Shown: positions 25,598 to 47,045, counted from the stretch's first letter. The stretch is DNA of 64,000 nucleotides from Minisyncoccota bacterium (GCA_028687715.1 JAQTZP010000003.1:7521-71520), one strand, 5' to 3'. Numbers and translations are program-made. Notes: generated from the sequence alone by a model not told the origin.

Positions 25598-25623
25598 GAG
25601 CTGCAGATAAAGCTCTACAGCTC
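25598..25623 (-). terminator. terminator of the 98-aa G+C-rich ORF
   Basis: GAGCTGTA...TGCAGCTC stem followed by TTTTGTTT on the minus strand. Confidence 0.5.
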
Positions 25624-25644
25624 AAACCTTCAAGAAAGGAACGA

Positions 25645-25941
25645 TTAGAAGCGGAGACAGCGGGGCTTTTTCACACAGGGAGGAGGCCTCCTGCCAAGCA
25701 GGATTGTTGAGGCTGACCTCTTCCTGCGCCTTCTAATGTTTGTAATGAGGCGCCTAACAGTATGCGGATTCATCTCGGCGCCAAACCGGATTGAGAACAA
25801 AGACGCAACCTTCTTCAAATGGCTGTAATTATTAATATCACAGCCCTCCCCGCAGAGAGAAAGAAAACGCTGCTGGTCAAAGCTGAGGTCTCCGAAAGAG
25901 ACAATCCTGTCGTCTCCATTCCTTCTTGCCCTCGAGCACAT
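25645..25941 (-). CDS. hypothetical Arg-rich small protein (possible HTH), G+C-rich cassette
   Basis: ATG at 25941 is preceded by AAGGAGA with a 7-nt spacer. The 98-aa product is MCSRARRNGDDRIVSF...NPHTVRRLITNIRRRRKR.... Composition clearly differs from the flanks, and the unit has its own promoter and terminator. Confidence 0.45.
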   Translation of the reverse strand: MCSRARRNGDDRIVSFGDLSFDQQRFLSLCGEGCDINNYSHLKKVASLFSIRFGAEMNPHTVRRLITNIRRRRKRSASTILLGRRPPPCVKKPRCLRF

Positions 25942-26050
25942 TTCAGATCTCCTTTTCGCACCAGTTGAACCAGCCAACTCCCGCTGCGCCCCTTCTCTTT
26001 CCTGTTAAAGCTAATCTCCTTTCCTGAAAGATACAAAGAGCCAATAGTTA

Positions 26051-26078
26051 ATTCTATTAAAAATAAATAAAGTGTCAA
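26051..26078 (-). promoter_or_regulatory. sigma70-like promoter TTGACA-N16-TAGAAT for the 98-aa ORF
   Basis: The minus strand reads TTGACActttatttatttttaaTAGAAT, about 110 nt upstream of the ATG at 25941. Confidence 0.45.
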
Positions 26079-26081
26079 TAG

Positions 26082-26110
26082 TTGCTGTTGAAAAACAAAA
26101 GTAATATAAT
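26082..26110 (+). promoter_or_regulatory. sigma70-like promoter TTGCTG-N17-TATAAT for pth (near-leaderless mRNA)
   Basis: The -10 element ends 9 nt before the pth ATG at 26120, and no SD is present. Confidence 0.4.
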
Positions 26111-26119
26111 GAAAAAAAT

Positions 26120-26680
26120 ATGATTATTATTACAGGATTAGGAAACCCAGAAGAAAAATACTTAAGAACAAGGCACAATGCTGGTTTTACAGCTGTTGAT
26201 GAATTTCAGAAAAAGAACAACTTTTCTGATTTTATCTTTTCTAAGAAAATTAATTCTTTAATATCTGAAGGAGTTTTTAACAATGAGAAAATAATTATTA
26301 TAAAGCCCCAAACCCATATGAACAATTCAGGAAGAGCAGTAAGACTGGCCCTTGATTATTATAAAGGGAAGTGCTTGGATTTATTTGTTATCCATGATGA
26401 CAGTGACCTTGTCTTAGGCAAGATAAAGATTGTTAAAAACCGGGGCTCAGCCGGACATAAAGGAGTAGAATCAATAATAAACGAGATTGGAAGCCAGGAT
26501 TTTATAAGAATTAGAATCGGGATAAGGAGTAAAAACTTAAAAGACGCCTCTGATTTTGTTTTAAAGAAGTTCTCCCAAAAAGAAGAGGTTTTGTTTAAAA
26601 GAGCTGTTAAAAAAACAATTGAAGCTGTAGAATATTTTAAAAAAGAAGGACTTAAAAAAACAATGAACAAGTATAACTAA
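26120..26680 (+). CDS. pth: peptidyl-tRNA hydrolase
   Basis: 186 aa. GLGNPEEKYLRTRHNAGF is the Pth N-terminal signature. Confidence 0.9.
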   Translation: MIIITGLGNPEEKYLRTRHNAGFTAVDEFQKKNNFSDFIFSKKINSLISEGVFNNEKIIIIKPQTHMNNSGRAVRLALDYYKGKCLDLFVIHDDSDLVLGKIKIVKNRGSAGHKGVESIINEIGSQDFIRIRIGIRSKNLKDASDFVLKKFSQKEEVLFKRAVKKTIEAVEYFKKEGLKKTMNKYN

Positions 26681-26684
26681 ATAT

Positions 26685-28709: not shown

Positions 28710-28716
28710 CTTATCT

Positions 28717-28803
28717 GCCTGGGTGGCGGAATTGGCTTACGCGTACGACTCAAAATCGTATGACCGCAAGGTCGTGTGGGTTCGAGTCCCACCCCAGGCA
28801 CCA
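28717..28803 (+). tRNA. tRNA-Leu (anticodon CAA), CCA encoded
   Basis: Hand fold: acceptor GCCTGGG/CCCAGGC, anticodon arm TACGA-CTCAAAA-TCGTA, long variable arm, T arm GTGGG-TTCGAGT-CCCAC, 3' ACCA. Confidence 0.9.
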
Positions 28804-28923
28804 GTATTAAACTTTCAGGAATTTTGCCGACCGATTCGGCCGCGCGAAGCGCGCCATCAGTTCCGTTCAAAAAAGGTTCGGATTTCGTCAAATAGACGCA
28901 CCGGAATCTAATTTTCGGAAAAA

Positions 28924-29460
28924 TTATAGCTTTGTAAATCCCTTCTGAAAGACCTTAAGCCATTCATCAAACTCACTTCTAACATCTTTGCTTATTTGGT
29001 TAGAAATTTGTTTTAAGTCTTGATTAAATCCAAAATTCCCTTTAATCTGATCGACTATTTCAATAGCAATATTAAATAAAGATTTAACTTCATTGATACT
29101 CATCGAATTTTCTCTTAAAAATTCTTCTCGAGCAAGCATTCTCTTTACATCGAGATGTGCAAACATCTTATTCCTTAAATTTGTAATCCTTTCAATCAGT
29201 TCATCGTAATCTGATAATTTATAATCTAGGAAATAATAAATGGAAATGGTTTCTTTAAACCTTTTAGGAACTTCAAAAATTTTTGCTAAACCTAACAAAT
29301 AATCTTTTTCCAAACTTATAAGAATTATATTCCATGTTGGAATAAATTTATTGTAAAAATCTCCATCCACTTTCTCGTGCATAATTTCATTAAGACATAA
29401 CTGACGATAAGAAAATAATAGATTTTCAATTAATATCTCAAATTCTTCAGCTTGCGCCAT
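28924..29460 (-). CDS. HEPN-like (AbiU2-type) putative defence protein
   Basis: 178-aa all-helical protein with an Rx4-6H-type motif LRNKMFAHLD. It is the last gene of the methyltransferase-endonuclease operon. Confidence 0.5.
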   Translation of the reverse strand: MAQAEEFEILIENLLFSYRQLCLNEIMHEKVDGDFYNKFIPTWNIILISLEKDYLLGLAKIFEVPKRFKETISIYYFLDYKLSDYDELIERITNLRNKMFAHLDVKRMLAREEFLRENSMSINEVKSLFNIAIEIVDQIKGNFGFNQDLKQISNQISKDVRSEFDEWLKVFQKGFTKL

Positions 29461-29474
29461 AGGAATTAAAATAC

Positions 29475-30389
29475 TTATTTAAGCATAAACAAAGCCTTAA
29501 AACCGGCGGTATTTACCCAAAAATTCTGCGGATTGTGAATTAGATATTTCTTAATCTCTTTTCTTTGCGTTGTTATTTTATCACCACCATTTTCATCGCT
29601 TAGAAGAATATTTGAGTAACTGCCGTCCAAAAAAGCGAGATAAGAGATATTTTTATTCTGTTCTCTTAGGCTAATAATTTCAATCAATTCGGCAATTTGC
29701 TTATCTTGTCCCCCGCCCGAAGTATTTAGATGTTTAGCTTCGCATAAAAATATTCTTCCATTCATTTTAATAATCAAGTCTAACTTTTTATTCTGTTTCT
29801 TGGCGGCCAATCTAATACCTAAATTTTTTCGGACATTTTTTACGCTGAAAATCTTTGAAAATTTAGCTGTGCATTTTCGTTTATCAGAAAAATCTTTCCA
29901 AGTCCTTACTTCTTGAAAACCATATTTGGCTAAAATATACAGAAGTTTTTTCTCGCCGCATTTTCCTTTTTTGCGACCAGAATTTGAATCTAAAATAGCT
30001 TGTATCCATTCTTCGGGAACGGATTCATTCAAAATTCTTTTCTCAAAATATTTTTGGGCGATTTTCTCTAGTAAAATAATGTCCTGCTTGGCTAAATCTA
30101 AAAAGCTATCGCAGGCGTTTATAAAACAAGCAAATTCCGAACAATTTGAGAATTTCCCCAGCGCCTTTGAAAGCTCCAAGAGATATTTTCTTATAACTTT
30201 TTTGTCCTCGTTTTTCTTTTGTAATGTCCTAATGGTAATCAGGATATTTTTAATTTCTTTTGTATTGGTAATATACTTCTGAAGTTGCGGGTGTTTTCCA
30301 TCAAAAATATAAAAACTATCCAAAATTTTCTCTGGATTTTGCTGTGATATTTTAAAATAATGCAGGTTGTTTTGAATTTTTTTCATCAT
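29475..30389 (-). CDS. putative type II restriction endonuclease (PD-(D/E)xK-like)
   Basis: 304 aa. KKLDLIIKMNGRIFLCEAKH fits D...ExK. It overlaps the upstream methyltransferase gene by 38 nt. Confidence 0.5.
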   Translation of the reverse strand: MMKKIQNNLHYFKISQQNPEKILDSFYIFDGKHPQLQKYITNTKEIKNILITIRTLQKKNEDKKVIRKYLLELSKALGKFSNCSEFACFINACDSFLDLAKQDIILLEKIAQKYFEKRILNESVPEEWIQAILDSNSGRKKGKCGEKKLLYILAKYGFQEVRTWKDFSDKRKCTAKFSKIFSVKNVRKNLGIRLAAKKQNKKLDLIIKMNGRIFLCEAKHLNTSGGGQDKQIAELIEIISLREQNKNISYLAFLDGSYSNILLSDENGGDKITTQRKEIKKYLIHNPQNFWVNTAGFKALFMLK

Positions 30390-31488
30390 AAATATAGTTC
30401 AAAAACTTATAAGTAAGCTCAAAAGAAATTCTTTTCCTGTTGTTGTCTCTAAAATTAGTCAGAAAAAATGAAAGATATTTACTCCTCCCGCGATTCAACT
30501 CTTTGTTAAACCGCTTCATCAGTTCTATTTGGTCGTTTATCGGTATTTCCTCCTTGAAAATCAAATGGGCCATATTACGGGAAGTGTTTTTGCCCACAAG
30601 CCCGACAACGCCATACTTTCTTATATCTTCAAGTTGAATTTTCTTTCCGTTTTTGCTGTCTATGGCCCTTAAAAAGAGGATGTTTTTTTCTATTAACTTT
30701 TTAATGTCTTTGCTGATACGAAGCGGTTTTTTATCTTTAATATTCTGAAACGCCAACTCAACTTCGTATTCACCGGATTTCAAATAATCTTCAGTTAAGC
30801 GAAAAATTCCTAAATGATTTTGGGTATTTTTAATTCTGTTGATAAAATCACCGCCAAATTGCCAGTTGTATTTTCTTTCAATCGTAAAATCAATCTGTTT
30901 CTTTTCGGGGAAAATAACGGCGGGAATTCTGATCTTTTCTAAATTATCTTTTTTTCTTCTGAAATAAAAAGATATTACGTTATAAGTTGTGTCTTCAAAA
31001 ACTTGTTCGGAAAAGATGTTTAACTTTACAATTTCAAATTTATCAAAGAATAGATTTCTGATTTTTCTGGAATTTTCAGCGCAAAGAAAATTCAATGGAA
31101 CAATTAAAATTCCTTCTTCGCAATTCAAAATTGAGAATACAGAAACTTGATATAAATCCTCAAAACCTGAATGCGTTCCGGAAAAAAACCTTTCTTTAGT
31201 TTTTTGGTCCGTCTTGTTTTTGTGTAAATAGGGCGGATTAGTACAAACGAACTTATATATCTGCGGAGAATTTATTGAATCATTATAGAGGGTATTTTTG
31301 CCGTCAACATAGTTTTTATCACAATCAAAACCAACGACTTTTTTGCAGCCATTTTTGCGAGCCCACCCTATTAAATCCTGATTGCCGGCAAAAGGATCGG
31401 TAATTTCTTTATTTTTTACAAATCCCTCAAGTCCCTGCAGAATATAATCAGAATTTGTAGTGAAAAATTGTCCAAATTGCTTTTTCAT
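30352..31488 (-). CDS. N6-adenine DNA methyltransferase (type II, gamma-like motif order)
   Basis: 378 aa. FGQFFTT, a SAM-binding-like DPFAGNQD and the catalytic TNPPY are present. Confidence 0.8.
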   Translation of the reverse strand: MKKQFGQFFTTNSDYILQGLEGFVKNKEITDPFAGNQDLIGWARKNGCKKVVGFDCDKNYVDGKNTLYNDSINSPQIYKFVCTNPPYLHKNKTDQKTKERFFSGTHSGFEDLYQVSVFSILNCEEGILIVPLNFLCAENSRKIRNLFFDKFEIVKLNIFSEQVFEDTTYNVISFYFRRKKDNLEKIRIPAVIFPEKKQIDFTIERKYNWQFGGDFINRIKNTQNHLGIFRLTEDYLKSGEYEVELAFQNIKDKKPLRISKDIKKLIEKNILFLRAIDSKNGKKIQLEDIRKYGVVGLVGKNTSRNMAHLIFKEEIPINDQIELMKRFNKELNRGRSKYLSFFLTNFRDNNRKRISFELTYKFLNYIYDEKNSKQPALF

Positions 31489-31600
31489 ATAAAGAATTCT
31501 GCTTTATTATTATTTTACTTGATTTTTAATAATAGTCCAATTTTCACTGGTGCGCTTGGATACGATAGAATTTCAGGGAAATGGTTGCATAATTAAAAAA

Positions 31601-31648: not shown

Positions 31649-32191
31649 TTAGAAACTCTTAAACAGGGATGTCAATTTCTTCCTTTTAGATATCATATAC
31701 CCTCCCCACCCTATAATTATTCCAATTACTGCTCCGTAAAAAACATCAGAGGGCCAATGAATGCCTATAAAGATTCTGGATGTGGTTATTAAAAAAGCAG
31801 AGATATAGAATAAAAGGCCGAGTTTTTTGTTATACAGATAGACAGCTGTTGATAAAGCGAAATAAAAAGAGGCATGGCCTGAAGGAAAAGAAGCCTCATT
31901 AGAATTATAATTTACAAGCAGATTAACATTGTTAGTTATAAAAGGCCTGGGTCTGAACCAAATAAAACGAATAAAGTCAGTTACGATAAATCTTGATATC
32001 AAAGCAGACAAAAACCCAGAAGCAGCCATTCTGCAATATTCTTTAAACTTTAAAGCCAATAGCCCAAATAAAACCAAGATTAAAACATACTCAAAATATT
32101 GAGCTAAAAATACGGCAAAAGCATCTAAACAGGCCCATTTCCCCGCATAACCATTTATTAAATTAAATAGATATAGATCCATATTCTTCAA
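31649..32191 (-). CDS. PAP2 family phosphatase (undecaprenyl-diphosphatase-like)
   Basis: 180-aa polytopic protein with PSGHAS and SRIFIGIHWPSDV motifs. Its start overlaps the RT stop. Confidence 0.85.
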   Translation of the reverse strand: MKNMDLYLFNLINGYAGKWACLDAFAVFLAQYFEYVLILVLFGLLALKFKEYCRMAASGFLSALISRFIVTDFIRFIWFRPRPFITNNVNLLVNYNSNEASFPSGHASFYFALSTAVYLYNKKLGLLFYISAFLITTSRIFIGIHWPSDVFYGAVIGIIIGWGGYMISKRKKLTSLFKSF

Positions 32192-33218
32192 TTATTTCCT
32201 TTTTTAATTTATAACTCTTGCAATGTTTTAAAATGCCGAAATAAGATTGAATAGTTTGACCAAAAGATTGTTTTGAGATTTTATTGTTTTTTAGGTCTTT
32301 AATTCTCTTTTCTATTCTTTTTAACATTCTTTTTTTAGTCTTAGTCCTTAAGATAATATGATGAGGGAAACTGACATATCCCAAGAAATCAACTCCCTGG
32401 TGATATCTCTTTATTACTATCTTACCTGGATGAAGAGATAATTTCAAATTACCTTTTAGAAAAGTTTTAATCTTTGGAATAATCCCTGTCAGATATCTGA
32501 AATTATTAGACACTATCAAGAAATCATCGCAATAACGAACATAATATCTTATTCTTAGATTATCTTTGATAAATCTATCTAACTCATTCAGATAAATATT
32601 AGCAAATAATTGGCTTGTAATATTTCCCAAAGGAATACCTTTTAAAAGCGAGGTTGAATAGCTTTTAATTATTCCTTCTATCAACCAAACAGCATCTTTA
32701 TCTTTTATCTTTTTTTTAATTAAACTAATTAGTATTTTATGGTCTATTGAATCAAAGAACTTTAAAATATCGCATTTTAGAAAATAGCAATTTCTAGCAT
32801 TATTCTTACTTGCCTTTTTAGCGAACCTATTAAGACGCACTACTGCCCTATGAGTACCTTTGTTTATCCTTGAAGAATAGGAATCAAAGATAAAAGAATT
32901 ATCAAAAATAGGGTATAATATTTTAAAAACAGCATGATGTAAGACCCTGTCTTTTACGCAAGCTTTATGAATATGCCTGAGTTTCGGGTCTTTTATATAG
33001 AAAGAGGTATAATCAGAATGTCTGTAGGTTTTTAATTTTAATTCTTTATGAAGACAAAATATATTATTTTCTAAAAAGAGGTTAAAATCTAAAACATCTA
33101 TTTTTTTAATTTTCCCCCTTTTAAATTCATCCCAAGCGCAAAATAGATTTTCAAGAGAAATAATCTCATCAAAAGTATGGCATTTAATACCCCCGACTTC
33201 GATTTGCCGATTATCCAT
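32163..33218 (-). CDS. DGR-type reverse transcriptase
   Basis: 351 aa. The N-terminal ...LENLFCAWDEFKRGK... matches DGR/group-II-like RTs. The DGR signature LGNITSQ and the catalytic YCDD (RYCDDFLIV) are present. Confidence 0.9.
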   Translation of the reverse strand: MDNRQIEVGGIKCHTFDEIISLENLFCAWDEFKRGKIKKIDVLDFNLFLENNIFCLHKELKLKTYRHSDYTSFYIKDPKLRHIHKACVKDRVLHHAVFKILYPIFDNSFIFDSYSSRINKGTHRAVVRLNRFAKKASKNNARNCYFLKCDILKFFDSIDHKILISLIKKKIKDKDAVWLIEGIIKSYSTSLLKGIPLGNITSQLFANIYLNELDRFIKDNLRIRYYVRYCDDFLIVSNNFRYLTGIIPKIKTFLKGNLKLSLHPGKIVIKRYHQGVDFLGYVSFPHHIILRTKTKKRMLKRIEKRIKDLKNNKISKQSFGQTIQSYFGILKHCKSYKLKKEIIEEYGSISI

Positions 33219-33539
33219 AAAGTTTATGATTTTTACAACCTATTTTATCGGTATTTAGAAACTTTTCCCAAAAAAGATAAATATATCTTAGGACAAAAAT
33301 GCGAGAATATAATTTTAGATATCTTAGAACTGATTTTTACAGCAGCTCAAACCAAGCAAGAAAATAAATTAGATTTATTAGAAAAAGCAAGCGTTAAGTT
33401 AAATATCTTAAGAATAATAGTGAGATTAGCAAAAGATATAAAGGTTTTAGACTTTAAGAAGTATCTAACAATCCAAAAGAATATAGATGAAATTGGGAGA
33501 ATGCTTGGCGGCTGGATTAAATTAACCAAAGACCGCTGA
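33177..33539 (+). CDS. avd: Avd-like four-helix-bundle accessory protein (opposite strand to RT/TR/target)
   Basis: 120-aa basic helical protein. ...KDKYILGQKCENIILDILELI... and the C-terminal IGRMLGGWIKLTK resemble bAvd/four-helix-bundle proteins. Confidence 0.7.
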   Translation: MAFNTPDFDLPIIHKVYDFYNLFYRYLETFPKKDKYILGQKCENIILDILELIFTAAQTKQENKLDLLEKASVKLNILRIIVRLAKDIKVLDFKKYLTIQKNIDEIGRMLGGWIKLTKDR

Positions 33540-33587
33540 ACTAAAGGTTCTCCAAAAAAGAGGGTGTTTTTATTTTAGATGAGAGAT

Positions 33588-33709
33588 AGAATTTCCGAGC
33601 AGAGGAAACACCCAAGTTAGCGTTGCGGTTGTCATCCCAGTTGTTGTTGACGTTGAGGCCCCTCAAATCGAAGTTGCCGACGTAGATACGGTTGCCGTCC
33701 GAATCCACA
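33588..33709 (-). repeat. DGR template repeat (TR)
   Basis: The 122 nt are identical to VR except at 17 of its 29 adenines on the minus strand. It encodes GNRIYVGNFDLRGLNVNNNWDDNRNANLGVSSARK with nine AAC codons. Confidence 0.9.
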
Positions 33710-33995
33710 TTATTTGCTTATCCTCGTCCATGTCACTGGAAATTGGGGTTTACTACTCATAAGAGTTTATATCCTCTCTTTCCTGTATTTTATTCGGGAG
33801 CAGACAAATTTCGTTGCCATCTCCTCTAAAGACAAGCAAGAAGTTCTATCTCTATCTTTTATCACACGCTATCGTTATCCGTAAACAACGATATTCTGGT
33901 GATGTCTCAAAGATGAGACGCCTGCGAGGTGAAGCCTTGACCGCACCTGCATTAGCAGACATTTATATTTTATAAGATATTTGAAGAAAAGAAAA

Positions 33996-34026
33996 GAGCC
34001 TCCTGCGAAAATATCGCCGAAGGCTC
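33996..34026 (-). terminator. terminator-like hairpin after the DGR target gene
   Basis: GAGCCT...AGGCTC stem followed by TTTTCTTTTCTTC on the minus strand. Confidence 0.45.
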
Positions 34027-34029
34027 AAG

Positions 34030-34056
34030 GACTCAAGAGATTCAAACTCTCGAGTC
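34030..34056 (-). promoter_or_regulatory. inverted repeat/hairpin immediately 3' of VR
   Basis: 10-bp stem (GACTCGAGAG / TCTCTTGAGTC, one G-U pair on the minus-strand RNA) with a 7-nt loop, starting 8 nt after the target stop codon. Confidence 0.45.
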
Positions 34057-34063
34057 TCAAAGT

Positions 34064-34837
34064 TCAGAACTTCCGAGCAGAGGAAACACCCAAGTCAGCG
34101 CTGCGGTAGTCATCCCAGTCGTAGCAGACGTAGAGGCCCCTCAAATCGAAGGCGCCGACGAAGAGACGGCGGCCGACCGAAGCCACAGATGAGGTTCGAA
34201 CATAGATGTGTTCAAACAAGCGTTCATCAGTAGCAAGATAGTGTCCAATGATGGTGTAGACCATCACTTGGGCAGTGGGGACTTCATCCTCTTCGCCGAT
34301 AAGAGCCAATTGCTCTTCCCAGTTCTTCGAGGTTGAATTGTTCACTGGGGTCTTGGAAACCAAGTGCCAGCTTGTCTTGCCACGGTCACGAGCGACTGAC
34401 TCCTCGTTGTACCACGACTGGTCGCAGAACAACCTGGAATCCACCTTGCCCCGAATCTCAAGGATTGAGAGCGGGAAGACTGCCACCAGAACGTGCGTGT
34501 CCTTTGCCTTTTGGAGCACCTCTTCAGAGAAAGGAATCTCCGACAAAGCAAGCGTTTGCTGGCGGGTCGGGTTAACCCCGAAATGCTTGATGGCTTCTTC
34601 AATGCCGAAGAAGTTCCTGCCCATGATTTCACGGGCACGCTTCTGGCTGGTTGTGGGTTCGAACCCGCCTTTCTGAATCAACCTGACCACTTTCGTAGCA
34701 AGGTCGTTGCCCTTCGAGTCGATGACTTTCTGGGCGAACTCTCCTGTGAGACCAGCGACTTCCAACTTCTTCAGGAATTCGTGTTCCTGATGCACCGAAA
34801 TGGTACGTTCGTCTGTAGAGCTTACCATGGCTTTCAT
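34064..34837 (-). CDS. DGR target protein (variable C-terminus), no signal peptide, unknown N-terminal domain
   Basis: 257-aa ORF, G+C-rich, with SD AGGAGGG upstream. The last 40 codons are the VR. Confidence 0.85.
   Translation of the reverse strand: MKAMVSSTDERTISVHQEHEFLKKLEVAGLTGEFAQKVIDSKGNDLATKVVRLIQKGGFEPTTSQKRAREIMGRNFFGIEEAIKHFGVNPTRQQTLALSEIPFSEEVLQKAKDTHVLVAVFPLSILEIRGKVDSRLFCDQSWYNEESVARDRGKTSWHLVSKTPVNNSTSKNWEEQLALIGEEDEVPTAQVMVYTIIGHYLATDERLFEHIYVRTSSVASVGRRLFVGAFDLRGLYVCYDWDDYRSADLGVSSARKF
34066..34187 (-). repeat. DGR variable repeat (VR)
   Basis: 3' end of the target ORF, offset exactly 478 nt from TR. All 17 mismatches to TR are at TR adenines. Confidence 0.9.
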
Positions 34838-34978
34838 GGCACACCCTCCTGTCTGTGAAGTTATCCGATTCGTCGGATATGCGACTGCCTCGGAATGAGA
34901 CTAGCGCTTTACACCCTTTTTAAAGTTAAAGGAGGTAAAACGCTAGCCTCATATTTCTGAAACATTTGATATAAAGAA

Positions 34979-35809
34979 CTATTCTGCCTTAATTATAGCA
35001 AATTTAAATAAATTGTCAAGTAGGCAAGCTACAGCCACAGGCCCAATTCCATTTGGCACCGGAGCTATAAAACTTGCCTTATGGTAGGCATTTTTATCAA
35101 TATCCCCTTTTACCCTTCCTTCTTCAGAAGATGTTCCTGCGTCAATTAAAACAACGCCTTCTTTTACCATCTTATCAGTTATAATCCCGGGCGAACCGGC
35201 CCCTGATATTATAATGTCAGCTTCTTTTGTAATCTCTGATATATTTTTTGTGCTTCTATCAATTACAGAATAATTAATATTTCTGTTTTTAAACCATACG
35301 GCCAGGGGTTTTCCAACCAGCCTCCCTTTCCCGACTATCACCACTTTTTTATTATTAATATCAATGTTAAATTCTTCTAAAAAGCATTTCACTGCGCCGA
35401 CAACAGGAGGAAGAATCATCAGCTTGTTCCTTTCAAACTTATCAAAATTAATGTCTGTTAAAACATCAATATCTTTTTCAGGCGGTATCATATTTAAAAT
35501 ATCAGGCGCATTGAAGCCTTTAGGCAGAGGAAGCTGAATAACAATTGATGAAACGCTTGCGTCTTCGGCTAATCTCTTTACTTCTTTCTTTAAATCGTCT
35601 TCAGAAACATCTAAAGGGAAAAAAGAGAGATTAAACTCAATTCCTATTTTCCTAGAAGCCTCCTCTTTCTTCCTTATAAACGACTTAGAAGCCAAGCTTT
35701 CTCCAGCCAAAACAACAGCTAACTTCAAATTAAGCTTTTTTTCAATAATCTTTTTCTTAAGATTATCTAAAATCCTATCAGCTAGTTTATTGCCGTCTAA
35801 AATAGTCAT
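34979..35809 (-). CDS. folD: bifunctional methylenetetrahydrofolate dehydrogenase/cyclohydrolase
   Basis: 276 aa. Rossmann site VVIVGKGRLVGKPLA and a FolD-like C-terminus PNGIGPVAVACLL. Confidence 0.9.
   Translation of the reverse strand: MTILDGNKLADRILDNLKKKIIEKKLNLKLAVVLAGESLASKSFIRKKEEASRKIGIEFNLSFFPLDVSEDDLKKEVKRLAEDASVSSIVIQLPLPKGFNAPDILNMIPPEKDIDVLTDINFDKFERNKLMILPPVVGAVKCFLEEFNIDINNKKVVIVGKGRLVGKPLAVWFKNRNINYSVIDRSTKNISEITKEADIIISGAGSPGIITDKMVKEGVVLIDAGTSSEEGRVKGDIDKNAYHKASFIAPVPNGIGPVAVACLLDNLFKFAIIKAE
34992..35019 (-). promoter_or_regulatory. consensus sigma70 promoter TTGACA-N16-TATAAT inside the 3' end of folD, facing the DGR target
   Basis: The minus strand reads TTGACAatttatttaaatttgcTATAAT. 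The predicted 5' UTR is about 150 nt and contains hairpins at 34901-34946 and 34863-34878. Confidence 0.5.
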
Positions 35810-35810
35810 T

Positions 35811-40657: not shown

Positions 40658-43153
40658 TTAAACTACTATATTAATTAATTTATTCTTAACAAATATTATC
40701 TTTTTAATTTTTTTGCCCTGCATCCATTTATTAACCTTTTCTGTTTTTAATACTGTTTCTTTTGCATTGTCTTCAGAAATATCTTGGCCAACCTCTATCT
40801 TGTCTCTCACTTTTCCGTTAATCTGAACTATTAACAGAACCTTATCTTCTCTAATGAATTCCTCATCATGCTTAGGCCACTTCTGGGAAAAGCATAGTCC
40901 TTTAAAGCCAGATTCTTCCCAAAGCTCTTCTGATATATGAGGGGCAAAAACAGAAAGAATAATCAAGAACTTTTTAAAATCATCTTTATCCAAGCCTGTT
41001 TTTTCCTTGTGCCATTTATTTATAAACTCCATCAAAGCACTTACCGCAGTGTTGAATTTCAAAGAGTCAATATCAAGAGAAACCTTTTTTATTGTTTTGT
41101 GCAGCAATCTTTTAAGCTCGCTGTCTTTAGCTTCTATCTTAGATGGAAGCTTATACACCCTTTGTAAAAACCTATAAATTCCAACAATTCCTTTTGTGTC
41201 CCATATAGCAGCCTGTTCAAAAGGGCCTATAAACATTTCATAAACTCTTAAGGCGTCTGCCCCGTATTTATTTATAACTTCATCCGGGTTGATGACATTG
41301 CCTTTGGATTTTGACATCTTTATCATTTTTTCCCCTAAAATCATGCCGTGAGAGGTTCTCTTTCTGTAAGGTTCCGGGCCTATGGATTTAGGCACGACTC
41401 CAATATCCCAAAGGAATTTATAAATAAAGCGGGAGTATAAAAGGTGGAGGGTGGTATGCTCCATTCCTCCGTTATACCAGTCAACCGGCATCCAGTAGCT
41501 GAGAGGTTTTTTGCCAGCCAGCTCATTGTTGTTATATGGGTCGCAGTAGCGCAAATAATACCAGTTAGAGCCTGCCCAATTAGGCATTACATCAGTTTCT
41601 CTTTGAGCCTGTTTTTGGCACTTAGGACATTTAACTTCTAAAAAGTCTTTATTCTTTGCCAAAGGAGATTCCCCTTTTTCCGTAGGCTTGTATTCTTTTA
41701 CTTCAGGGAGAACAAGGGGCAGGTCTTTTTCCTCTACTGGAATTATTTCATATTTTATGCCTTCTTTTACTATATAATCATAGCCTTCTCTCGCTTCATC
41801 TTTTTCTTTTTTCAGCTTTTTTTCCCAGCAATAAGAGCAGTAAATAATGGGTATTGGTTCTCCCCAATAGCGCTGCCTTGAAAAAATCCAATCCCTCAAT
41901 TTATAATATACCTTATTTTCTGCTAAACCCTTATTGCTTAGCCATTTGGCTATTTTATCCTTAGCTCTTTTAGAGTCCATGCCGCTAAATCTCTCGGAAT
42001 TAACCAAGAATCCTTCTCCTTCATACGCCTTGTCATAATCAAACTTCTGGCCTTTATTATCTCTAATTACTTCAATAATAGAAAGATTATATCTTTTAGC
42101 AAAATCAAAATCCCTTTTATCATGAGCCGGAACCGCCATTATGGCTCCGGTGCCGTAATTAATCAAAACGTAATCTGCGACAAAAACAGGTATCTCTTTT
42201 CCGTTTGCCGGGTTTACTGCTTTTATCCCAATCAGCTCTACTCCGGTTTTCTCTTTTATCTCTGAAATCCTTTCTCTTTCCAGCTTGCTCTTAGCCTTTT
42301 CAATATAGCTTTTTACAATTCTGTAATTTTTAATTCTGTCTTTTAATTTCTCTATTAATTGATGCTCTGGAGCTAAAACCAAATAAGTGCACCCGAATAA
42401 AGTATCTATCCTTGTGGTAAAAACACTTGCTGAAAGAGTGGTTTTAGAAATCTTAAACTTAACCTCTAGTCCCTGGCTCTTGCCTATCCATTCCTTCTGG
42501 CCTATTTTCACCCTTTCAGGATAATCAACCAAGCCTAAATCATCAATTAATCTTTGGGCATATTCTGTAATTTTTATCAGCCACTGCTCTTTTTCCTTTT
42601 TAACAACATTAAAGCCGCATCTCTCGCATTTTCCATCGAGCACTTCTTCGTTAGCCAGCCCAATCTTACAGGAAGGACACCAGTTAATATCCATTTTTGC
42701 TTTATAGGACAGGCCTTTCTTAAAAAGCTGGATGAATATCCACTGAGTCCATTTGTAGTACAACGGATCTGAAGTATTAATTTCTCTTGAAAAATCAAAG
42801 GAAAGACCTATTCTTTTTTGCTGTTTTCTGAATTTATCAGTATTATTTAAAGTAGCGGCAGCTGGATGAATCCCTGTCTTAATAGCATAGTTTTCTGTAG
42901 GAAGCCCAAAGGCATCCCAGCCCATTGGAAATAATACATTAAATCCTTCTAATCTCTTTTTTCTGGCAATAACATCCAGACCAATATAGCTTCGGCAGTG
43001 GCCCACATGAAGCCCTTCCCCGGAAGGATATGGGAATTCAACAAGAACATAGAATTTTTTAGAGCCTGAACTATCTTTTGCCTTAAAAACATCCGAGCTG
43101 TACCACTTATTCTGCCATTTTTTCTCTATTTTCTTAGGATTATACTTTCTCAT
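40658..43153 (-). CDS. leuS: leucine--tRNA ligase
   Basis: 831 aa with class I HVGH (LHVGHCRSY) and KMSKS motifs. Confidence 0.95.
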   Translation of the reverse strand: MRKYNPKKIEKKWQNKWYSSDVFKAKDSSGSKKFYVLVEFPYPSGEGLHVGHCRSYIGLDVIARKKRLEGFNVLFPMGWDAFGLPTENYAIKTGIHPAAATLNNTDKFRKQQKRIGLSFDFSREINTSDPLYYKWTQWIFIQLFKKGLSYKAKMDINWCPSCKIGLANEEVLDGKCERCGFNVVKKEKEQWLIKITEYAQRLIDDLGLVDYPERVKIGQKEWIGKSQGLEVKFKISKTTLSASVFTTRIDTLFGCTYLVLAPEHQLIEKLKDRIKNYRIVKSYIEKAKSKLERERISEIKEKTGVELIGIKAVNPANGKEIPVFVADYVLINYGTGAIMAVPAHDKRDFDFAKRYNLSIIEVIRDNKGQKFDYDKAYEGEGFLVNSERFSGMDSKRAKDKIAKWLSNKGLAENKVYYKLRDWIFSRQRYWGEPIPIIYCSYCWEKKLKKEKDEAREGYDYIVKEGIKYEIIPVEEKDLPLVLPEVKEYKPTEKGESPLAKNKDFLEVKCPKCQKQAQRETDVMPNWAGSNWYYLRYCDPYNNNELAGKKPLSYWMPVDWYNGGMEHTTLHLLYSRFIYKFLWDIGVVPKSIGPEPYRKRTSHGMILGEKMIKMSKSKGNVINPDEVINKYGADALRVYEMFIGPFEQAAIWDTKGIVGIYRFLQRVYKLPSKIEAKDSELKRLLHKTIKKVSLDIDSLKFNTAVSALMEFINKWHKEKTGLDKDDFKKFLIILSVFAPHISEELWEESGFKGLCFSQKWPKHDEEFIREDKVLLIVQINGKVRDKIEVGQDISEDNAKETVLKTEKVNKWMQGKKIKKIIFVKNKLINIVV

Positions 43154-43195
43154 AACTTATTTTATATAATAGCACGATAAAAAAGAGTCATCAAT

Positions 43196-44011
43196 TTATA
43201 GCTTAAACAGCTTTGCCGCATTCTCAAATGTCATATCAGCTGTTTCTTTAAAGCTTATTCCTTTAAGCTCAGCTATTCTTTCAATGATATATTTTACAAA
43301 TAAAGGTTCGTTGCGGCTTGCTTTTGCTTTATAAGGAGTAAGATAAGGGCAATCTGTCTCAACCAAGATTCTATCCATAGGAGCCTTTTTAATTACTTCA
43401 TTAAGGTCTAATTTAAAGATTATTCCGTTAAACCCTAAATAATAACCCATATTAAGATATTTCTCGGCATCATCCCAAGCGCCTGTAAAGCAGTGGATTA
43501 CCCCTTTTAAACTTCCATCAAGAATATCAATTAAATCATTGTGCGCCATCCTTGAGTGCAGTATCACTGGCAGATTAAGCTCTTTTGCTAAATCCAACTG
43601 CTTTAGAAAAACCTCTTTCTGCTTATTCTTAAACAATTCTAATTTATTATTTGCTTTTGGGCGATAATAATAATCAAGACCTATCTCTCCTATTGCAACC
43701 ACCTTATCATTTAAAGCAAGCTCTTTGTAGTTATTGATGTCAAAGTCTTCTTGATTGATTGCAAACCCTCCTTCTTCTTTATCAGCTCTTACTTTTACAA
43801 ATTCACTGGCAGAATAAATAGGGTGAAGCCCTACTGCCGCATAAACGCCTCTGTTATACTTTTCGGCAATCTCTACTGCTTTTTTGCTGGTCTCATATTT
43901 TGAGCCAACATTAATCATCCAGATATCATCTGATAAGGTTTTTGATATGACAGAAGCTAAATCTTTATTATACGCATTGAAATTAAGATGGGCGTGGGTA
44001 TCTATTATCAT
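43196..44011 (-). CDS. tatD: TatD family metal-dependent hydrolase
   Basis: The MIIDTHAHL start at 44011 is preferred. The track ORF start at 44071 would run through the csrA terminator. Confidence 0.85.
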   Translation of the reverse strand: MIIDTHAHLNFNAYNKDLASVISKTLSDDIWMINVGSKYETSKKAVEIAEKYNRGVYAAVGLHPIYSASEFVKVRADKEEGGFAINQEDFDINNYKELALNDKVVAIGEIGLDYYYRPKANNKLELFKNKQKEVFLKQLDLAKELNLPVILHSRMAHNDLIDILDGSLKGVIHCFTGAWDDAEKYLNMGYYLGFNGIIFKLDLNEVIKKAPMDRILVETDCPYLTPYKAKASRNEPLFVKYIIERIAELKGISFKETADMTFENAAKLFKL

Positions 44012-44063
44012 AATTAATTGGTGTATTTTAGCTGAATTGGGAAATAAACTCAAATAATAACAA

Positions 44064-44086
44064 AGCGGCAAAGTCTTTTTGCCGCT
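44064..44086 (-). terminator. csrA terminator
   Basis: AGCGGCAAA/TTTGCCGCT 9-bp stem followed by TTGTTATTATTT on the minus strand. Confidence 0.6.
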
Positions 44087-44112
44087 AAAATGAGAATGAG
44101 AAGAGAATGAGC

Positions 44113-44289
44113 CTACGCCCTCTTGGCGTGATGAATTGCCTCAAGAATCTCTTTCCTGTGCACAGGAATATCCTTGGGCGCGTCAATGCCCAACCTGACG
44201 CTCTTGCCGTAGATGGCAAGGACAACGACTGACACCCTGTTTTCTCCGATGACGATTGACTGACCCTTCTTCCTTGAAAGCACCAACAT
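44113..44289 (-). CDS. csrA: carbon storage regulator CsrA (post-transcriptional RNA-binding regulator)
   Basis: Not in the ORF track (58 aa). Hand translation gives MLVLSRKKGQSIVIGENRVSVVVLAIYGKSVRLGIDAPKDIPVHRKEILEAIHHAKRA*, with the family-defining MLVLSRK, LGIDAPK and HRKEI. Confidence 0.9.
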   Translation of the reverse strand: MLVLSRKKGQSIVIGENRVSVVVLAIYGKSVRLGIDAPKDIPVHRKEILEAIHHAKRA

Positions 44290-44316
44290 TTCCCTTTCCT
44301 TTCCAAAGAGTTAAAC

Positions 44317-44339
44317 TTCTCAGATTCCCGTTCTGAGAA
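44317..44339 (-). promoter_or_regulatory. 5' UTR hairpin presenting GGGA in its loop, plus a GGA-rich SD region (possible CsrA autoregulation sites)
   Basis: The minus strand reads TTCTCAGA-ACGGGAA-TCTGAGAA (8-bp stem). Downstream, GGAAAGGAAAGGGAAATG overlaps the SD and start codon. Confidence 0.4.
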
Positions 44340-44353
44340 AAGAACTAATTTCT

Positions 44354-44381
44354 ATCTTACTGGAATTTAAGGGATTGTCAA
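44354..44381 (-). promoter_or_regulatory. sigma70-like promoter TTGACA-N16-TAAGAT for csrA
   Basis: The -35 element overlaps the stop codon of the upstream permease gene. Confidence 0.5.
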
Positions 44382-45508
44382 GGTTTTAGAAAATATACTG
44401 CCTCAAAAATAATGCCCAAGATAAAGATGAAAACAAGGAAGTAATTAATCGGGTTCATTTTAAAAGACCTTTTCATCAGAAATGCCCTATAAAGAAATAC
44501 AATAACAATGCCTTCAATACCCAAAGACACAGCTCCTAAAAACCCTATTATCTTAATATACTCCCTTAGGCCTAAAAGAAAAAGAATAAAAGGAATAAAG
44601 CAGGTAAAAAGCCAGGAAAGCCCTTTATTTATGCCAAAGTCATAATTAAGCATCTTTTTCAAGGTCAGGGCAATTGTTAGAAAAGAAGTAAAACAGCATA
44701 AAAGTCCGAAAATAAAGCCCAGGCCTAATATATTTACGCCAAGCTTATCAACCAATCCGGATATTGCTTCTTTTGAGGTTGAAGGCCCTGATACGCCAAG
44801 GGTTATAAAGATAAAGAATAGGTATAGAAAAGCTGAGAAAACAATTCCCAGCGCTATTATCTTTTTTAAGTTTTTGCTTAAAAGATTCTTACCCATTTCC
44901 CTTTTAAGCATTTCTTTGATTTCAGGAATAATGGAAGCTCCCCAAAGAGAAAAAAGAACCACTCCATAGGGAAAAGTAAAAAAGGCTGAATCAATCTTTT
45001 TAAAATAATCTGTGTTTATAAAAGAATAGGAGGTTATGAAAAAAAGAGAGAGGATGAATATGAGTATAAATACCAGCAAAAGCTCTATTTTAGAAATGCT
45101 CTTTATGTCCCTATAAACTAAATAAGAGCCGAAAAGAAAGAATATAAGGGTGTATAAAACAGGGCTTCCTCCAAATATGGGGTAAAGTAAAGAAAACAAG
45201 AAATCTCCTCCAACAATCAGATAGGCAATAAGAGAGCCTCCCAAACCTATTAACCCTATAACAAATACCGACCTCTTCCACCCTGCTCCCAAATATTCTT
45301 CTGTATAACCAGTAAGCCGGTGGATTTTCTCTGTCTTTAAAACAACTTCTGCGTAAAGAAAATGAACCCAGACAACAACACCTGCCATTGATATTAAATA
45401 AACAGCGGTAATAAAAAAGCCGGCTTTCAAAGCCACAAAAGGCAAACTAAATATGCCTACGCCTATTACTGTTCCCAAGAAAACAGCAAGCGATTTAGCC
45501 AAGACCAT
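44378..45508 (-). CDS. amino acid permease (aromatic amino acid transporter-like)
   Basis: 376-aa protein with about 11 TM helices. This is a family-level call only. Confidence 0.6.
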   Translation of the reverse strand: MVLAKSLAVFLGTVIGVGIFSLPFVALKAGFFITAVYLISMAGVVVWVHFLYAEVVLKTEKIHRLTGYTEEYLGAGWKRSVFVIGLIGLGGSLIAYLIVGGDFLFSLLYPIFGGSPVLYTLIFFLFGSYLVYRDIKSISKIELLLVFILIFILSLFFITSYSFINTDYFKKIDSAFFTFPYGVVLFSLWGASIIPEIKEMLKREMGKNLLSKNLKKIIALGIVFSAFLYLFFIFITLGVSGPSTSKEAISGLVDKLGVNILGLGFIFGLLCCFTSFLTIALTLKKMLNYDFGINKGLSWLFTCFIPFILFLLGLREYIKIIGFLGAVSLGIEGIVIVFLYRAFLMKRSFKMNPINYFLVFIFILGIIFEAVYFLKP

Positions 45509-45525
45509 TTCTTTGTCTTTTAACG

Positions 45526-45819
45526 CTAAATTTTATACACCTTATACCCTTCCCTTACCTTATCTTTTACCTTTAAGCCAATAGAAGAGCCTTTCTTGGC
45601 TGTTTTAATCTTTTTATGCTCGTATTCCATTGACTTTACCGATTGAGTAAAATCAGTCTCTTCTCCGCCTGCAATTCTAATCTTGTCTCCAACAGAAAGC
45701 CCTGATGAAAGTTTAATAACCGCTACTTCAATTTTTGAAAAATAATGGGTTATTCTCCCTATGGGCTTGCCTTCTTTTTTAGCGCTTTTTGAAGCCTTTG
45801 CGGTTTTCTTCTTTGCCAT
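45526..45819 (-). CDS. translation elongation factor-like small protein (EF-Tu domain 2-like barrel)
   Basis: A start at ATG 45819 (MAKKKTAKAS...) is preferred over the TTG at 45879. IGRITHYFSKIEVAVIKLSSGLSVGDKIRI...GLKV...REGYKVYK is the family pattern. Confidence 0.6.
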   Translation of the reverse strand: MAKKKTAKASKSAKKEGKPIGRITHYFSKIEVAVIKLSSGLSVGDKIRIAGGEETDFTQSVKSMEYEHKKIKTAKKGSSIGLKVKDKVREGYKVYKI

Positions 45820-45893
45820 ATTATATAGCCTGTTTAAGGCTGATTTAAAAACCCGACCTTTATTAAAGTAATTATACAATAAAGAAACTAAAA

Positions 45894-46066
45894 ATGGAAA
45901 CCTAAAAAAATTAAGTTTCCATTTTTAATGAGGGAGGCGAGATTTAACGAACTCGGTTGAACTTCAAAGCTGGTGTTAGGACAAGTTCCAGAGACGTCTT
46001 TGAACCTCCTCCATTAAATCTCGTTGTCCTTTTGGGAATATTCTTTTAATATCCCGCACCCCCTCA
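45894..46066 (-). ncRNA. candidate structured small RNA (unknown family) with its own promoter and terminator
   Basis: A TTGACA-N18-TAAGAT promoter lies at 46073-46102. Nested helices are 46059-46066/45929-45936 (8 bp) and 46014-46023/45938-45947 (10 bp), plus hairpins. The terminator ATGGAAAC...GTTTCCAT+TTTTT is at 45894-45922. Several ANGGA motifs are present. Confidence 0.35.
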
Positions 46067-46072
46067 ATTTTA

Positions 46073-46102
46073 ATCTTACAATAAGTTGAAAATCCTTGTC
46101 AA
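46073..46102 (-). promoter_or_regulatory. sigma70-like promoter TTGACA-N18-TAAGAT for the candidate sRNA
   Basis: The minus strand reads TTGACAaggattttcaacttattgTAAGAT. Confidence 0.4.
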
Positions 46103-46203
46103 TATATTGCTGTAAAACAAAAGCCCTTCACAAATCGTCAAAATGACAAGATGCAAAGGGCAAAAGTCCAAGGTCAAAGAGCAAAAGATCAAAGACCAAA
46201 GGA

Positions 46204-46857
46204 CTAATTTGAAGATACCTGCGAGACAGCGAATGCGAAGCCGCTGCCGGAGTGCCAGTCGTCGTCGGGCCTGACATAGTAGGGGCTCAGCCAACGACCC
46301 TCATCGTAGCGGTCGGCGTAGAGCAAGTTCGGATCGCCAGCGGAATCATTGATGGGTTCGTGGAAAACCACAATCCACCAAAGATCCATGGCTTTCAGTT
46401 CCTTGTCCGAGAACAATTCGCGGATAAGGCAGGTAACCTCAGCATGCGGCTTCTCCAACTTCCGACGCTCAGCCTCAGCACGAATCTTCCTGGTGATGCG
46501 GTTCTTGTCCGTGAACAACGTACCCTTAAGCACAGCGACCTTGTAGGTCACACCCGTTGTAGGCTTGAAGTCCGAAGAAAGCAAAACATCCTTGGCCCAC
46601 TTGCTGAGCCGAAAACCCTTCTTCTCCAAGCGTTCAATCCACTGGGGACCGGTGGTGCCGTCAGAGGTGACCTCAAAGTAGATGACTCCGTTCTCTTCGT
46701 GCCAGCGACGCGATGAGCTCCCCTTAGGCGGACACAAAGCATCGGTCAAAGCCTTTTGCAAGGTCTTGGGGTTCTCTACCCACCCGCTCATGACGTCCTC
46801 AGGGACATTGACAAGGTTCTTGACCACGCACGAAACAAATTCCAAGACAAGCGACAT
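46204..46857 (-). CDS. hypothetical protein, non-diversified paralogue of the DGR target (by-eye similarity)
   Basis: ATG at 46857 is preceded by AAGGAGA. The ORF is 217 aa and G+C-rich. Motifs shared with the DGR target are FKPTTG/FEPTTS, YKVAVL/HVLVAV, WWIVVFHEP/WHLVSKTP, and a C-terminal YYVRPDDDWHSGSGFAF against LYVCYDWDDYRSADLGVS. Confidence 0.6.
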   Translation of the reverse strand: MSLVLEFVSCVVKNLVNVPEDVMSGWVENPKTLQKALTDALCPPKGSSSRRWHEENGVIYFEVTSDGTTGPQWIERLEKKGFRLSKWAKDVLLSSDFKPTTGVTYKVAVLKGTLFTDKNRITRKIRAEAERRKLEKPHAEVTCLIRELFSDKELKAMDLWWIVVFHEPINDSAGDPNLLYADRYDEGRWLSPYYVRPDDDWHSGSGFAFAVSQVSSN

Positions 46858-47015
46858 GGCGCATTCTCCTTTTATGAGCATTCGCCGAGTTCTTGAATCT
46901 GACCGCCACCATAGCAGTCATAGCCAGAAAATACCGATAAGTTATTAAGATTAGTATCTTTTGGCTATGACTGATAATACGCAAGCAGCTTTGTTATTAA
47001 AAGAGCTATTGATAT

Positions 47016-47045
47016 ATTAATAGCATAGTTATTTTGTTTTGTCAA
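47016..47045 (-). promoter_or_regulatory. sigma70-like promoter TTGACA-N17-TATTAAT for the paralogue gene
   Basis: The minus strand reads TTGACAaaacaaaataactatgcTATTAAT. It directly abuts tRNA-Arg(CCT). Confidence 0.45.

Follow-up and report, generated by a model that had tools for sequence, protein, structure and literature searches.

Do a few short genes that stand far above their A+T-rich surroundings in G+C content owe that difference to a foreign origin, or do they belong to the genome that carries them? The question is raised by a 64,000-nucleotide (nt) stretch of DNA from a Minisyncoccota bacterium (GCA_028687715.1 JAQTZP010000003.1:7521-71520; hereafter the window, with positions counted from its first nucleotide), in which a first-pass annotation had marked four G+C-rich segments and had suggested that they were either horizontally acquired cassettes keeping donor-type expression signals or a distinct expression class. 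Two of the segments hold target genes of diversity-generating retroelements (DGRs), one holds csrA, and one holds an Arg-rich open reading frame (ORF), here called Arg98. Our analysis favors the second suggestion: the four islands are probably resident, self-contained transcription units of one format, which form an old and maintained expression class and are not the product of recent transfer. The shared format consists of a sigma-70 promoter, a leader of 60-150 nt, a Shine-Dalgarno (SD)-like motif, codons ending in G or C and, usually, an intrinsic terminator.

Four islands of G+C-rich third codon positions

The G+C content of the window is 36.1% (mean of 200-bp windows 0.361, standard deviation 0.056), and a scan of its composition sets off four islands, named A to D.

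25601-26050: island A, the Arg98 unit, G+C 0.49
34001-34950: island B, the family-1 DGR target, G+C 0.52
44051-44350: island C, csrA, G+C 0.45 (0.51 for the csrA coding sequence itself)
46101-46950: island D, the family-2 DGR target, G+C 0.51

The four segments (G+C 0.45-0.52) are thus richer in G+C than their surroundings, as first noticed by eye, but two of them had been drawn somewhat generously: the limits 33590-34960 and 45925-46990 took in the spacer between target and template repeat (TR; 0.40) and a candidate small RNA (sRNA; 0.45), both of which are only mildly raised. The remaining windows with a G+C of at least 0.47 are tRNAs or lie inside genes. Most of the excess in the four island ORFs is held by third codon positions. 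The G+C content at these positions (GC3) is 0.60 for Arg98, 0.66 for the family-1 target, 0.68 for csrA and 0.70 for the family-2 target, compared with 0.325 ± 0.038 (maximum 0.428) for 57 host genes, whose overall G+C is 0.350 ± 0.032 (maximum 0.421). These values correspond to z = 7.2 to 9.9 and to logit offsets of 1.0-1.5. The codons of the island ORFs differ accordingly in kind: ATA and TTA are absent, AGA makes up 4% as against 53% in host genes, AAA is avoided as well, and NNC, CGY and AAG are favored.

Two other sources of the islands were ruled out. Structured-RNA genes do not account for them, since the only Rfam matches in the window are 4 tRNAs and E-value scans were negative. Nor does leakage of DGR adenine mutagenesis into the gene body, since A3/(A3+T3) is 0.47 in the family-1 target and 0.40 in the family-2 target, compared with 0.43-0.46 in host genes; A-depletion is restricted to the quarter of the target that holds the variable repeat (VR), and GC3 is uniform along the gene.

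Promoters, SD sites and terminators

All of the near-consensus sigma-70 promoters listed in the first-pass annotation are present at the units named there, and they are listed here with the intrinsic terminators.

26051-26078, minus strand: unit A promoter, TTGACA-16-TAGAAT (11/12)
34992-35019, minus strand: family-1 promoter, TTGACA-16-TG-TATAAT (12/12), within the 3' end of folD
44354-44381, minus strand: csrA promoter, TTGACA-16-TAAGAT
46073-46102, minus strand: candidate sRNA promoter, TTGACA-18-TAAGAT
47016-47045, minus strand: family-2 promoter, TTGACA-17-TATTAAT, present although it failed the -10 rule of the scanner
25598-25623, minus strand: unit A terminator
33996-34026, minus strand: family-1 target terminator, GAGCCTTCGGCG...CGCAGGAGGCTC plus a T-run, kept in 14 loci
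44064-44086, minus strand: csrA terminator
45887-45929, minus strand: candidate sRNA terminator, with a 19-bp stem

The promoters sit in A+T-rich DNA, and their TTGACA/TATAAT type is the host's own, as it also serves a tRNA operon (TTGACC-17-TATAAT, 48944-48916) and a further host unit (TTGCAA-17-TATAAT, 25580-25552). The claim that most units end in a terminator of their own held for Arg98, csrA, the candidate sRNA and the family-1 target; none was evident for the family-2 unit in the window.

The contrast between strong SD sites in the islands and SD-poor host genes was confirmed as well. In the class ORFs the motif is AGGAGG or AAGGAG, placed 6-9 nt ahead of the ATG and with GGA inside every one, and the predicted duplex with the anti-SD sequence has an energy of -8.7 (Arg98), -10.8 (family 1), -6.7 (csrA) and -8.7 kcal/mol (family 2). 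The mean for host genes is -0.8 kcal/mol, and a value of -6 or lower was found for 1 of 57 host genes and for all four class ORFs (Fisher p = 1e-5); the rate of strong SD-like sites ahead of all ATGs (11.9%) is above that of the host genes.

Two unrelated families of DGR targets

Island B belongs to a DGR cassette with the following features.

32163-33218, minus strand: DGR reverse transcriptase (RT; RVT_1, PF00078, E = 1.2e-22), G+C 27.5%, GC3 0.23
33177-33539, plus strand: Avd (bAvd, PF22296, E = 1.6e-23), G+C 29.5%, divergent from RT
33588-33709, minus strand: TR, 122 nt with 29 adenines, G+C 0.52
33713-33960, minus strand: conserved RNA domain on the 5' side of the TR; a -10-like TATAAAATATAAAT stands ahead of it at 33974-33961
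34032-34054, minus strand: hairpin right after the VR and stop codon, CTCGAGAG...CTCTTGAG, kept in 14 loci
34066-34187, minus strand: VR, differing from the TR at 17 positions, each a TR adenine
34064-34837, minus strand: family-1 DGR target, 257 amino acids (aa), G+C 0.53, GC3 0.66
34838-34985, minus strand: family-1 leader, ~148 nt, SD CAGGAGGG
34902-34887 and 34879-34862, minus strand: leader hairpins P1 and P2 (P2 TATCCGA-CGAA-TCGGATA)

Over 122 nt, all 17 mismatches between TR and VR fall at a TR adenine (A>C 4, A>T 6, A>G 7), the VR lies at the 3' end of the target and reaches its stop codon, and the 3' ends of the two repeats are identical but for one difference (A in TR, G in VR). With RT, Avd, adenine-specific repeats and a VR at the C-terminus of the target, the cassette at 32163-34837 is a DGR. 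RT and avd are A+T-rich, as the first-pass annotation had it, and both lack an SD (duplex energies +0.9 and -0.4 kcal/mol). The longest ORFs of the two genes share 42 nt where their 5' ends meet (33177-33218), and the true RT start may be further downstream.

The family-1 target has more than 1,000 homologues, of which the named ones are overwhelmingly from Patescibacteria. Their alignment shows a well-conserved body followed by ~35 C-terminal aa in which an invariant scaffold is interleaved with hypervariable positions; the AlphaFold model is unusable (predicted local distance difference test score 43). Family-1 targets frequently occur as tandem pairs (loci L018, L021, L024, L017 and L031), in which each copy has its own SD and leader and there is one TR-Avd-RT module.

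The interval between target stop codon and TR (33713-34063) is itself conserved. Aligned across the window and loci L006, L007, L009, L011, L013, L014, L016, L021, L024, L028, L029, L033 and L039, it shows 82-92% nucleotide identity in the closest loci, where it is better conserved than the coding sequence, and 66-80% in local alignments farther out. Its elements follow a set order: post-VR hairpin, target terminator, A+T-rich -10, conserved domain of ~230 nt, TR and second terminator. This order suggests that the TR RNA is its own transcript with a conserved and probably structured 5' domain. The domain has no match in Rfam.

Island D had been taken for a paralogue of the family-1 target, but the two families are unrelated (BLASTP E = 0.18; hhalign probability 1%).

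46204-46857, minus strand: family-2 DGR target, orphan copy, 217 aa from an SD-led ATG at 46857, G+C 0.54, GC3 0.70
46858-47045, minus strand: family-2 leader (~153 nt, SD AAGGAGA) and promoter

The longest ORF starts upstream of the SD-led ATG, at 46881, and the promoter begins 6 nt after tRNA-Arg(CCT) at 47052-47123. Homologues of family 2 likewise number more than 1,000, overwhelmingly from Patescibacteria where an organism is named, and the family-2 alignment shows a conserved body and ~35 C-terminal residues with hypervariable positions on an invariant scaffold. Among 33 family-2 loci with a length of at least 8 kb, 18 have the target gene directly followed by a TR, a divergent avd and RT, and we therefore consider family 2 a second genuine family of DGR targets. 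The membership of the island D ORF in this family is the link to DGRs that the first-pass annotation could not explain. In the search for a cognate TR of this copy, no segment of the 64-kb window matched at 60% or more, so that the copy is an orphan or is served from elsewhere in the genome; fold searches with the predicted family-2 model gave no significant match. After the stop codon, at 46110-46203 (minus strand), lies a run of CTTTG/CTTGA-like repeats that resembles the post-VR element of the active family-1 cassette, and this run may be the relic of a former DGR junction.

The G+C excess is family-wide and scales with host composition

The excess seen in islands B and D recurs throughout both families. 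Across 47 species-level loci, family-1 genes have a G+C of 55.6% (standard deviation 4.2) between flanks averaging 43.5% (32-60%), and across 48 loci family-2 genes have 55.4% between flanks of 41.6%; orphan and single-copy members of family 2 are equally G+C-rich. In 19 loci with a whole cassette the target has a G+C of 54.7% and a GC3 of 0.68, 14 points of G+C above the flanks (40.7%), whereas RT (36.2%) and Avd (35.9%), with a GC3 of 0.37-0.38, are 4-5 points below them. A logit regression of gene GC3 against host GC3 gave the following values.

Family 1 (43 loci): slope 0.63 ± 0.13, offset +1.10
Family 2 (31 loci): slope 0.86 ± 0.28, offset +1.16
RT: slope 0.66, offset -0.10
Avd: slope 1.15, offset +0.06

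Target GC3 thus follows host GC3 at a fixed distance of about +1.1 logit (3-fold odds), as expected of a resident gene under the mutation bias of its host plus a persistent force favoring G and C. Repeated import at a fixed composition would be expected to give a slope near 0. The bias is superimposed on host composition, and neither RT and Avd nor classic highly expressed genes show it. We therefore take it for a gene-specific property of third codon positions that has long been maintained, and not for the trace of a recent import.

Expression signals, too, recur throughout the two families. A strong SD precedes 92-97% of family-1 and 74-89% of family-2 genes, compared with 12.5% of 665 host genes in 78 loci and 0 of 50 avd genes, and a promoter with at least 10/12 matches lies within 200 nt upstream of 77% of family-1 and 56% of family-2 genes, compared with 19% of host genes and 4-5% of shuffles. 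The family-1 start block is almost invariant, AGGAGGTATGC(C/G)ATG, that is, AGGAGGT(A/G)TGC(C/G)ATG. Ahead of it stands a hairpin, P2 in the window, with a conserved (R)CGA(A) loop on 35 different inner stems. A direct hairpin scan with shuffled controls found a stem of at least 5 bp in 57 of 57 leaders (54% of shuffles) and of at least 6 bp in 77% (25% of shuffles); RNAalifold on a MAFFT alignment missed P2 through misalignment. The second family-1 hairpin (P1, GUCUC...GAGAC) shows compensatory changes, and in family 2 a covarying hairpin stands immediately 5' of AAGGAGA. The implied leader length is ~140 nt in both families. These promoters and leader signals are strong and host-type, not foreign, and we conclude that a distinct expression class, as one of the two original suggestions had it, holds family-wide across Patescibacteria.

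Descent of the islands and the case for recent import

Recent horizontal acquisition, in which a donor richer in G+C and using SDs would have supplied single-gene cassettes that have yet to ameliorate, would explain the strongly atypical codon dialect, and it draws further support from the position of unit D against tRNA-Arg, from the Arg98 slot and from one high-identity family-1 copy in a differently labelled class. Nevertheless, we consider it unlikely. When the VR was removed, the window target and its closest relatives differed by 0.9-2.4 synonymous substitutions per site (dS), with a proportion of synonymous differences (pS) of 0.54-0.72; housekeeping genes have a pS of 0.67-0.87 and are saturated. 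A dS of ~1-2 should have allowed amelioration, but the offset is found family-wide and scales with host GC3. Target identity also ranks with host relatedness, being 76% and 73% in L009 and L014, which NrdD and one more shared gene place as the nearest hosts, and 67-72% in the more distant L013, L015 and L019, which argues against recent import of the targets. For RT and Avd the closest locus is instead L019 (68% and 65%, versus 51-54%), suggesting that the RT-Avd and target-TR modules can be exchanged independently, and in composition they are host-like within the same cassette. Three-taxon parsimony on the direction of synonymous changes was discarded, because a host-gene control also came out at an "equilibrium" of 0.49, a saturation artefact.

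Other marks of mobility were sought. No flanking direct repeats, integrases or mobility genes were found around any unit, and a search of 2.9 million viral contigs for a viral reservoir gave 0 matches and 1 distant match for the two families. Judged as genomic islands, the units have the atypical composition but lack the repeats and mobility genes, and their anomaly is not lineage-specific (+1.1 logit in 43 + 31 loci). With host-type promoters in addition, horizontally acquired cassettes with donor-type signals are not supported for the two large islands.

Island A comprises the Arg98 ORF and its leader.

25645-25941, minus strand: Arg98, 98 aa, 17% Arg, G+C 0.51, GC3 0.60
25942-26044, minus strand: unit A leader, ~103 nt, SD AAGGAGA, with 5 GGA, not enriched after composition correction

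Arg98 has no homologue among 5.8 billion sequences and no Pfam match, and a search of 1.84 billion representatives returned two matches only, of low-complexity type. Its slot, bounded by pth and the signal peptidase gene, is hypervariable among relatives: the window, L015 (562-1228) and L019 (13261-13900) carry unrelated units, each with a consensus promoter and, behind an SD, a small ORF rich in Arg. A clear terminator ends the unit in the window and in L015, and in L013 (~14301-14317) the slot is empty. By eye only, Arg98 and the L019 ORF have a short helix-turn-helix-like stretch in common (TVRRLITNIRRRRKR versus DVRRMATNLQRKQRR). Neither csrA nor the Arg98 region has a counterpart in 1.67 Mb of Candidate Phyla Radiation (CPR) loci.

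csrA, the candidate sRNA and a possible regulon

GGA occurs in every class SD. In a genome otherwise without SDs, the sole ribosome-binding sites that bear it might be those of CsrA targets; CsrA would then gate all units, with the candidate sRNA as a sponge.

44113-44289, minus strand: csrA, 58 aa (PF02599, 80.1 bits against a cut-off of 27), G+C 0.51, GC3 0.68
44290-44347, minus strand: csrA leader, with a hairpin (44339-44317) that has GGA in its loop (unpaired probability 0.99), then GGAAAGGAAAGGGAA over the SD
45887-46102, minus strand: candidate sRNA unit, body 46066-45930, closing stem GAGGGGG...CCUCCCUC, fold z = -6.0

The csrA leader has an autoregulatory layout, with 4 GGA observed against 1.2 expected (P = 0.036), the candidate sRNA lies 1.6 kb from csrA and carries 5 GGA, and many family-2 leaders read TTAGAGGAAAA, then hairpin, then AAGGAGA. 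Such a regulon nonetheless seems quite unlikely as an explanation of the islands. After correction for composition, GGA is not enriched in the family-1 and family-2 leaders of the window and is marginal for Arg98 and the sRNA (P = 0.09-0.86). The GGA of an ordinary SD cannot be told from that of a CsrA site, and no csrA occurs near family 1 or family 2 in 140 loci. In the sRNA itself the 5 GGA compare with 2.3 expected (P = 0.09), and only 2 of them have an unpaired probability above 0.6. The sRNA has no match in Rfam and no counterpart in the 1.67 Mb of CPR loci, including 80 family-2 loci.

Gene conversion, translational selection and assembly

GC-biased gene conversion could raise GC3 without selection if recombination at DGR targets were frequent. 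The tandem paralogues in several loci (L018, L021 and L024, for example), the even rise of GC3 along the gene and the lower pS of the target than of housekeeping genes would fit. We regard this explanation as very unlikely, however, because the boundaries are sharp, with offsets near 0 for the adjacent RT and Avd at a distance of less than 1 kb, because orphan members and those present as a single copy are just as G+C-rich, and because csrA and Arg98 show the same offset though they are not DGR targets.

Ordinary translational selection, under which the class would be the most highly expressed genes using optimal codons ending in G or C, accords with the consensus promoters, the strong SDs, the preference for NNC and CGY and the avoidance of ATA, AGA and TTA; moreover, in ultra-small prokaryotes from groundwater csrA reportedly ranks with the highly expressed genes (PMC9938205). 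The classic highly expressed genes speak against it. In A+T-rich loci EF-Tu, GroEL, S2 and L2 have a GC3 of 0.25-0.44, next to DGR targets with 0.43-0.81, and none has an SD; S2 in L047, where the locus G+C is 54%, has 0.68, and S13 in the window has 0.37. As none of these genes exceeds host level in GC3 and no SD precedes any of the five checked, we judge this explanation highly improbable.

The chance that the islands are assembly or binning chimeras, a concern with abrupt composition changes in a metagenome-assembled genome (MAG), here one labelled Candidatus Pacebacteria, is negligible, since independent assembly of four runs gave five contigs that match the window at 100% identity over 33628-36620 and 41456-47107. 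These cover islands C and D with the junctions on either side, and island B on its target side, which excludes chimeras for these three (island A lies outside). Moreover, the same gene-in-context pattern recurs in dozens of other MAGs.

Neighboring loci

Between tRNA-Leu(CAA) on one side and the PAP2 gene and DGR on the other lies a small defence cluster (28717-31488), whose genes are all very A+T-rich.

28924-29460: AbiU2-type HEPN protein
29475-30389: DpnII/Tsp45I-like restriction enzyme
30352-31488: N6 methylase

Elsewhere in the window, a 61-aa ORF (48510-48695, minus strand) directly follows tRNA-His. It has a perfect SD (AAAGGAAGGAGGAACAAATG), a GC3 of 0.25 and no Pfam match, and it is apparently co-transcribed with the tRNA-Arg/tRNA-His operon from the promoter at 48944-48916.

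Evidence that does not fit a resident class

Several observations weigh against reading the islands as an old, resident class. The slope of the family-1 regression (0.63) is below 1. The pS of the target, being lower than that of housekeeping genes, could reflect synonymous constraint or more recent exchange among relatives, and one family-1 locus labelled Veblenbacteria, with 74% identity, hints at some transfer between classes; some exchange among CPR lineages may thus have taken place. At island A, the slot that is empty or differently filled in relatives makes a recent gain possible, and for csrA and Arg98 the shared format was examined in this window only. The 61-aa ORF combines a perfect SD with A+T-rich codons, so that SD and G+C-richness are separable. 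The SD-like motif, moreover, may not function as an SD: a 16S anti-SD motif was detected in only 48% of Parcubacteria, where SD helices are thought not to form (PMC9297842). The 3' end of the 16S gene was not found in the 64-kb window or in the 1.67 Mb of CPR loci.

As the force behind the high GC3, selection for a specific mRNA structure is without class-wide support: in permutations of synonymous codons, extra structure was seen in family 1 only, whose coding body (34190-34837, minus strand) folds better than its permutations (z = -4.4, 24 permutations), while z was -0.7 to -1.3 for family 2, csrA and Arg98, and host genes reach -2.1 to -2.5.

Relation to known systems

The DGRs of CPR bacteria form a cell-encoded, CPR-restricted clade ("clade 2", Roux et al. 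2021), whose targets lack recognizable domains (PMC8144416). The DGR of the window, with its RVT_1 RT, Avd, adenine-specific TR/VR of 122 nt, C-terminal VR and domain-less target, is a member of this known clade. What goes beyond the known CPR DGRs is the phylum-wide GC3 offset of the targets, the SD in SD-poor genomes and the covarying leaders. Neither that survey (PMC8144416) nor a DGR survey of 2024 contains the terms "GC content" and "codon usage". The compositional and expression signature of the targets appears to be undescribed. In the prototype, from which the DGR mechanism is known, that of Bordetella phage BPP-1, the priming element lies 3' of the TR; in the window the TR RNA has its conserved domain of ~230 nt on the 5' side.

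Like genomic islands acquired by horizontal transfer, the units show a local anomaly in G+C and codon usage, and one of them lies beside a tRNA, but they have no direct repeats, integrase or viral copies, and their anomaly is conserved in orthologues across the phylum and scaled to the host. Translation in Bacteroidetes is SD-independent, reportedly because the anti-SD is sequestered, and a few genes there, such as rpsU, keep a strong SD. The window is alike in that SDs are lacking across the genome while a few genes keep strong ones. It differs in phylum and in that the exceptions are DGR targets, csrA and small ORFs; about half of Parcubacteria, moreover, reportedly have no anti-SD motif (PMC9297842). 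As in CsrA/RsmA systems, the window has a canonical CsrA whose own leader carries GGA in a hairpin loop and GGA repeats over the SD; unlike CsrB and RsmY/Z sponges, the candidate sRNA has few exposed GGA. Leaders that stabilize mRNA are known from the 5' hairpins of the ompA type and from the STAB-SD of Bacillus thuringiensis cryIIIA. The class units resemble these in sequence features only, having a strong promoter, a long hairpin leader, a perfect SD-like element and a terminator.

A model for the expression of DGR targets

We propose that the class genes would use a separate expression channel in organisms whose bulk translation uses no SD. Transcription from the near-consensus promoters would be strong, and the transcript could be made durable by its 5' hairpins, G+C-rich body and 3' terminator. 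Initiation would take place via the purine-rich element, gated by the adjacent hairpin, and this element may be read by 16S pairing if the lineage keeps an anti-SD or, if not, by an RNA-binding factor. A broader version, which we offer as a rather doubtful speculation, is that Patescibacteria might have two translation regimes: bulk translation, that of EF-Tu and ribosomal proteins included, without SDs from codons ending in A or T, and a small, ancient set with codons ending in G or C that is centered on DGR targets (here with csrA and small basic ORFs). The set would stand behind the invariant purine-rich element and its gating hairpin, and a dedicated factor, perhaps CsrA, or a particular state of the ribosome would recognize this element, perhaps also where the 16S has lost its anti-SD. 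The hypervariable proteins would then be made only under a particular condition, such as starvation or host seeking.

If a resident expression class is the right reading, the GC3 offset and the SD would together be a simple sequence signature for finding further members, and screens that look for horizontal transfer or contamination by composition would pick out these resident genes of CPR MAGs in error. It would also raise the question of what reads the SD-like element in lineages reportedly without an anti-SD. CPR bacteria carry DGRs unusually often (PMC8144416), and a signature that is shared by two unrelated target families, and that the other genes of these organisms, even EF-Tu, do not have, would provide a concrete handle on the expression of these variable proteins.

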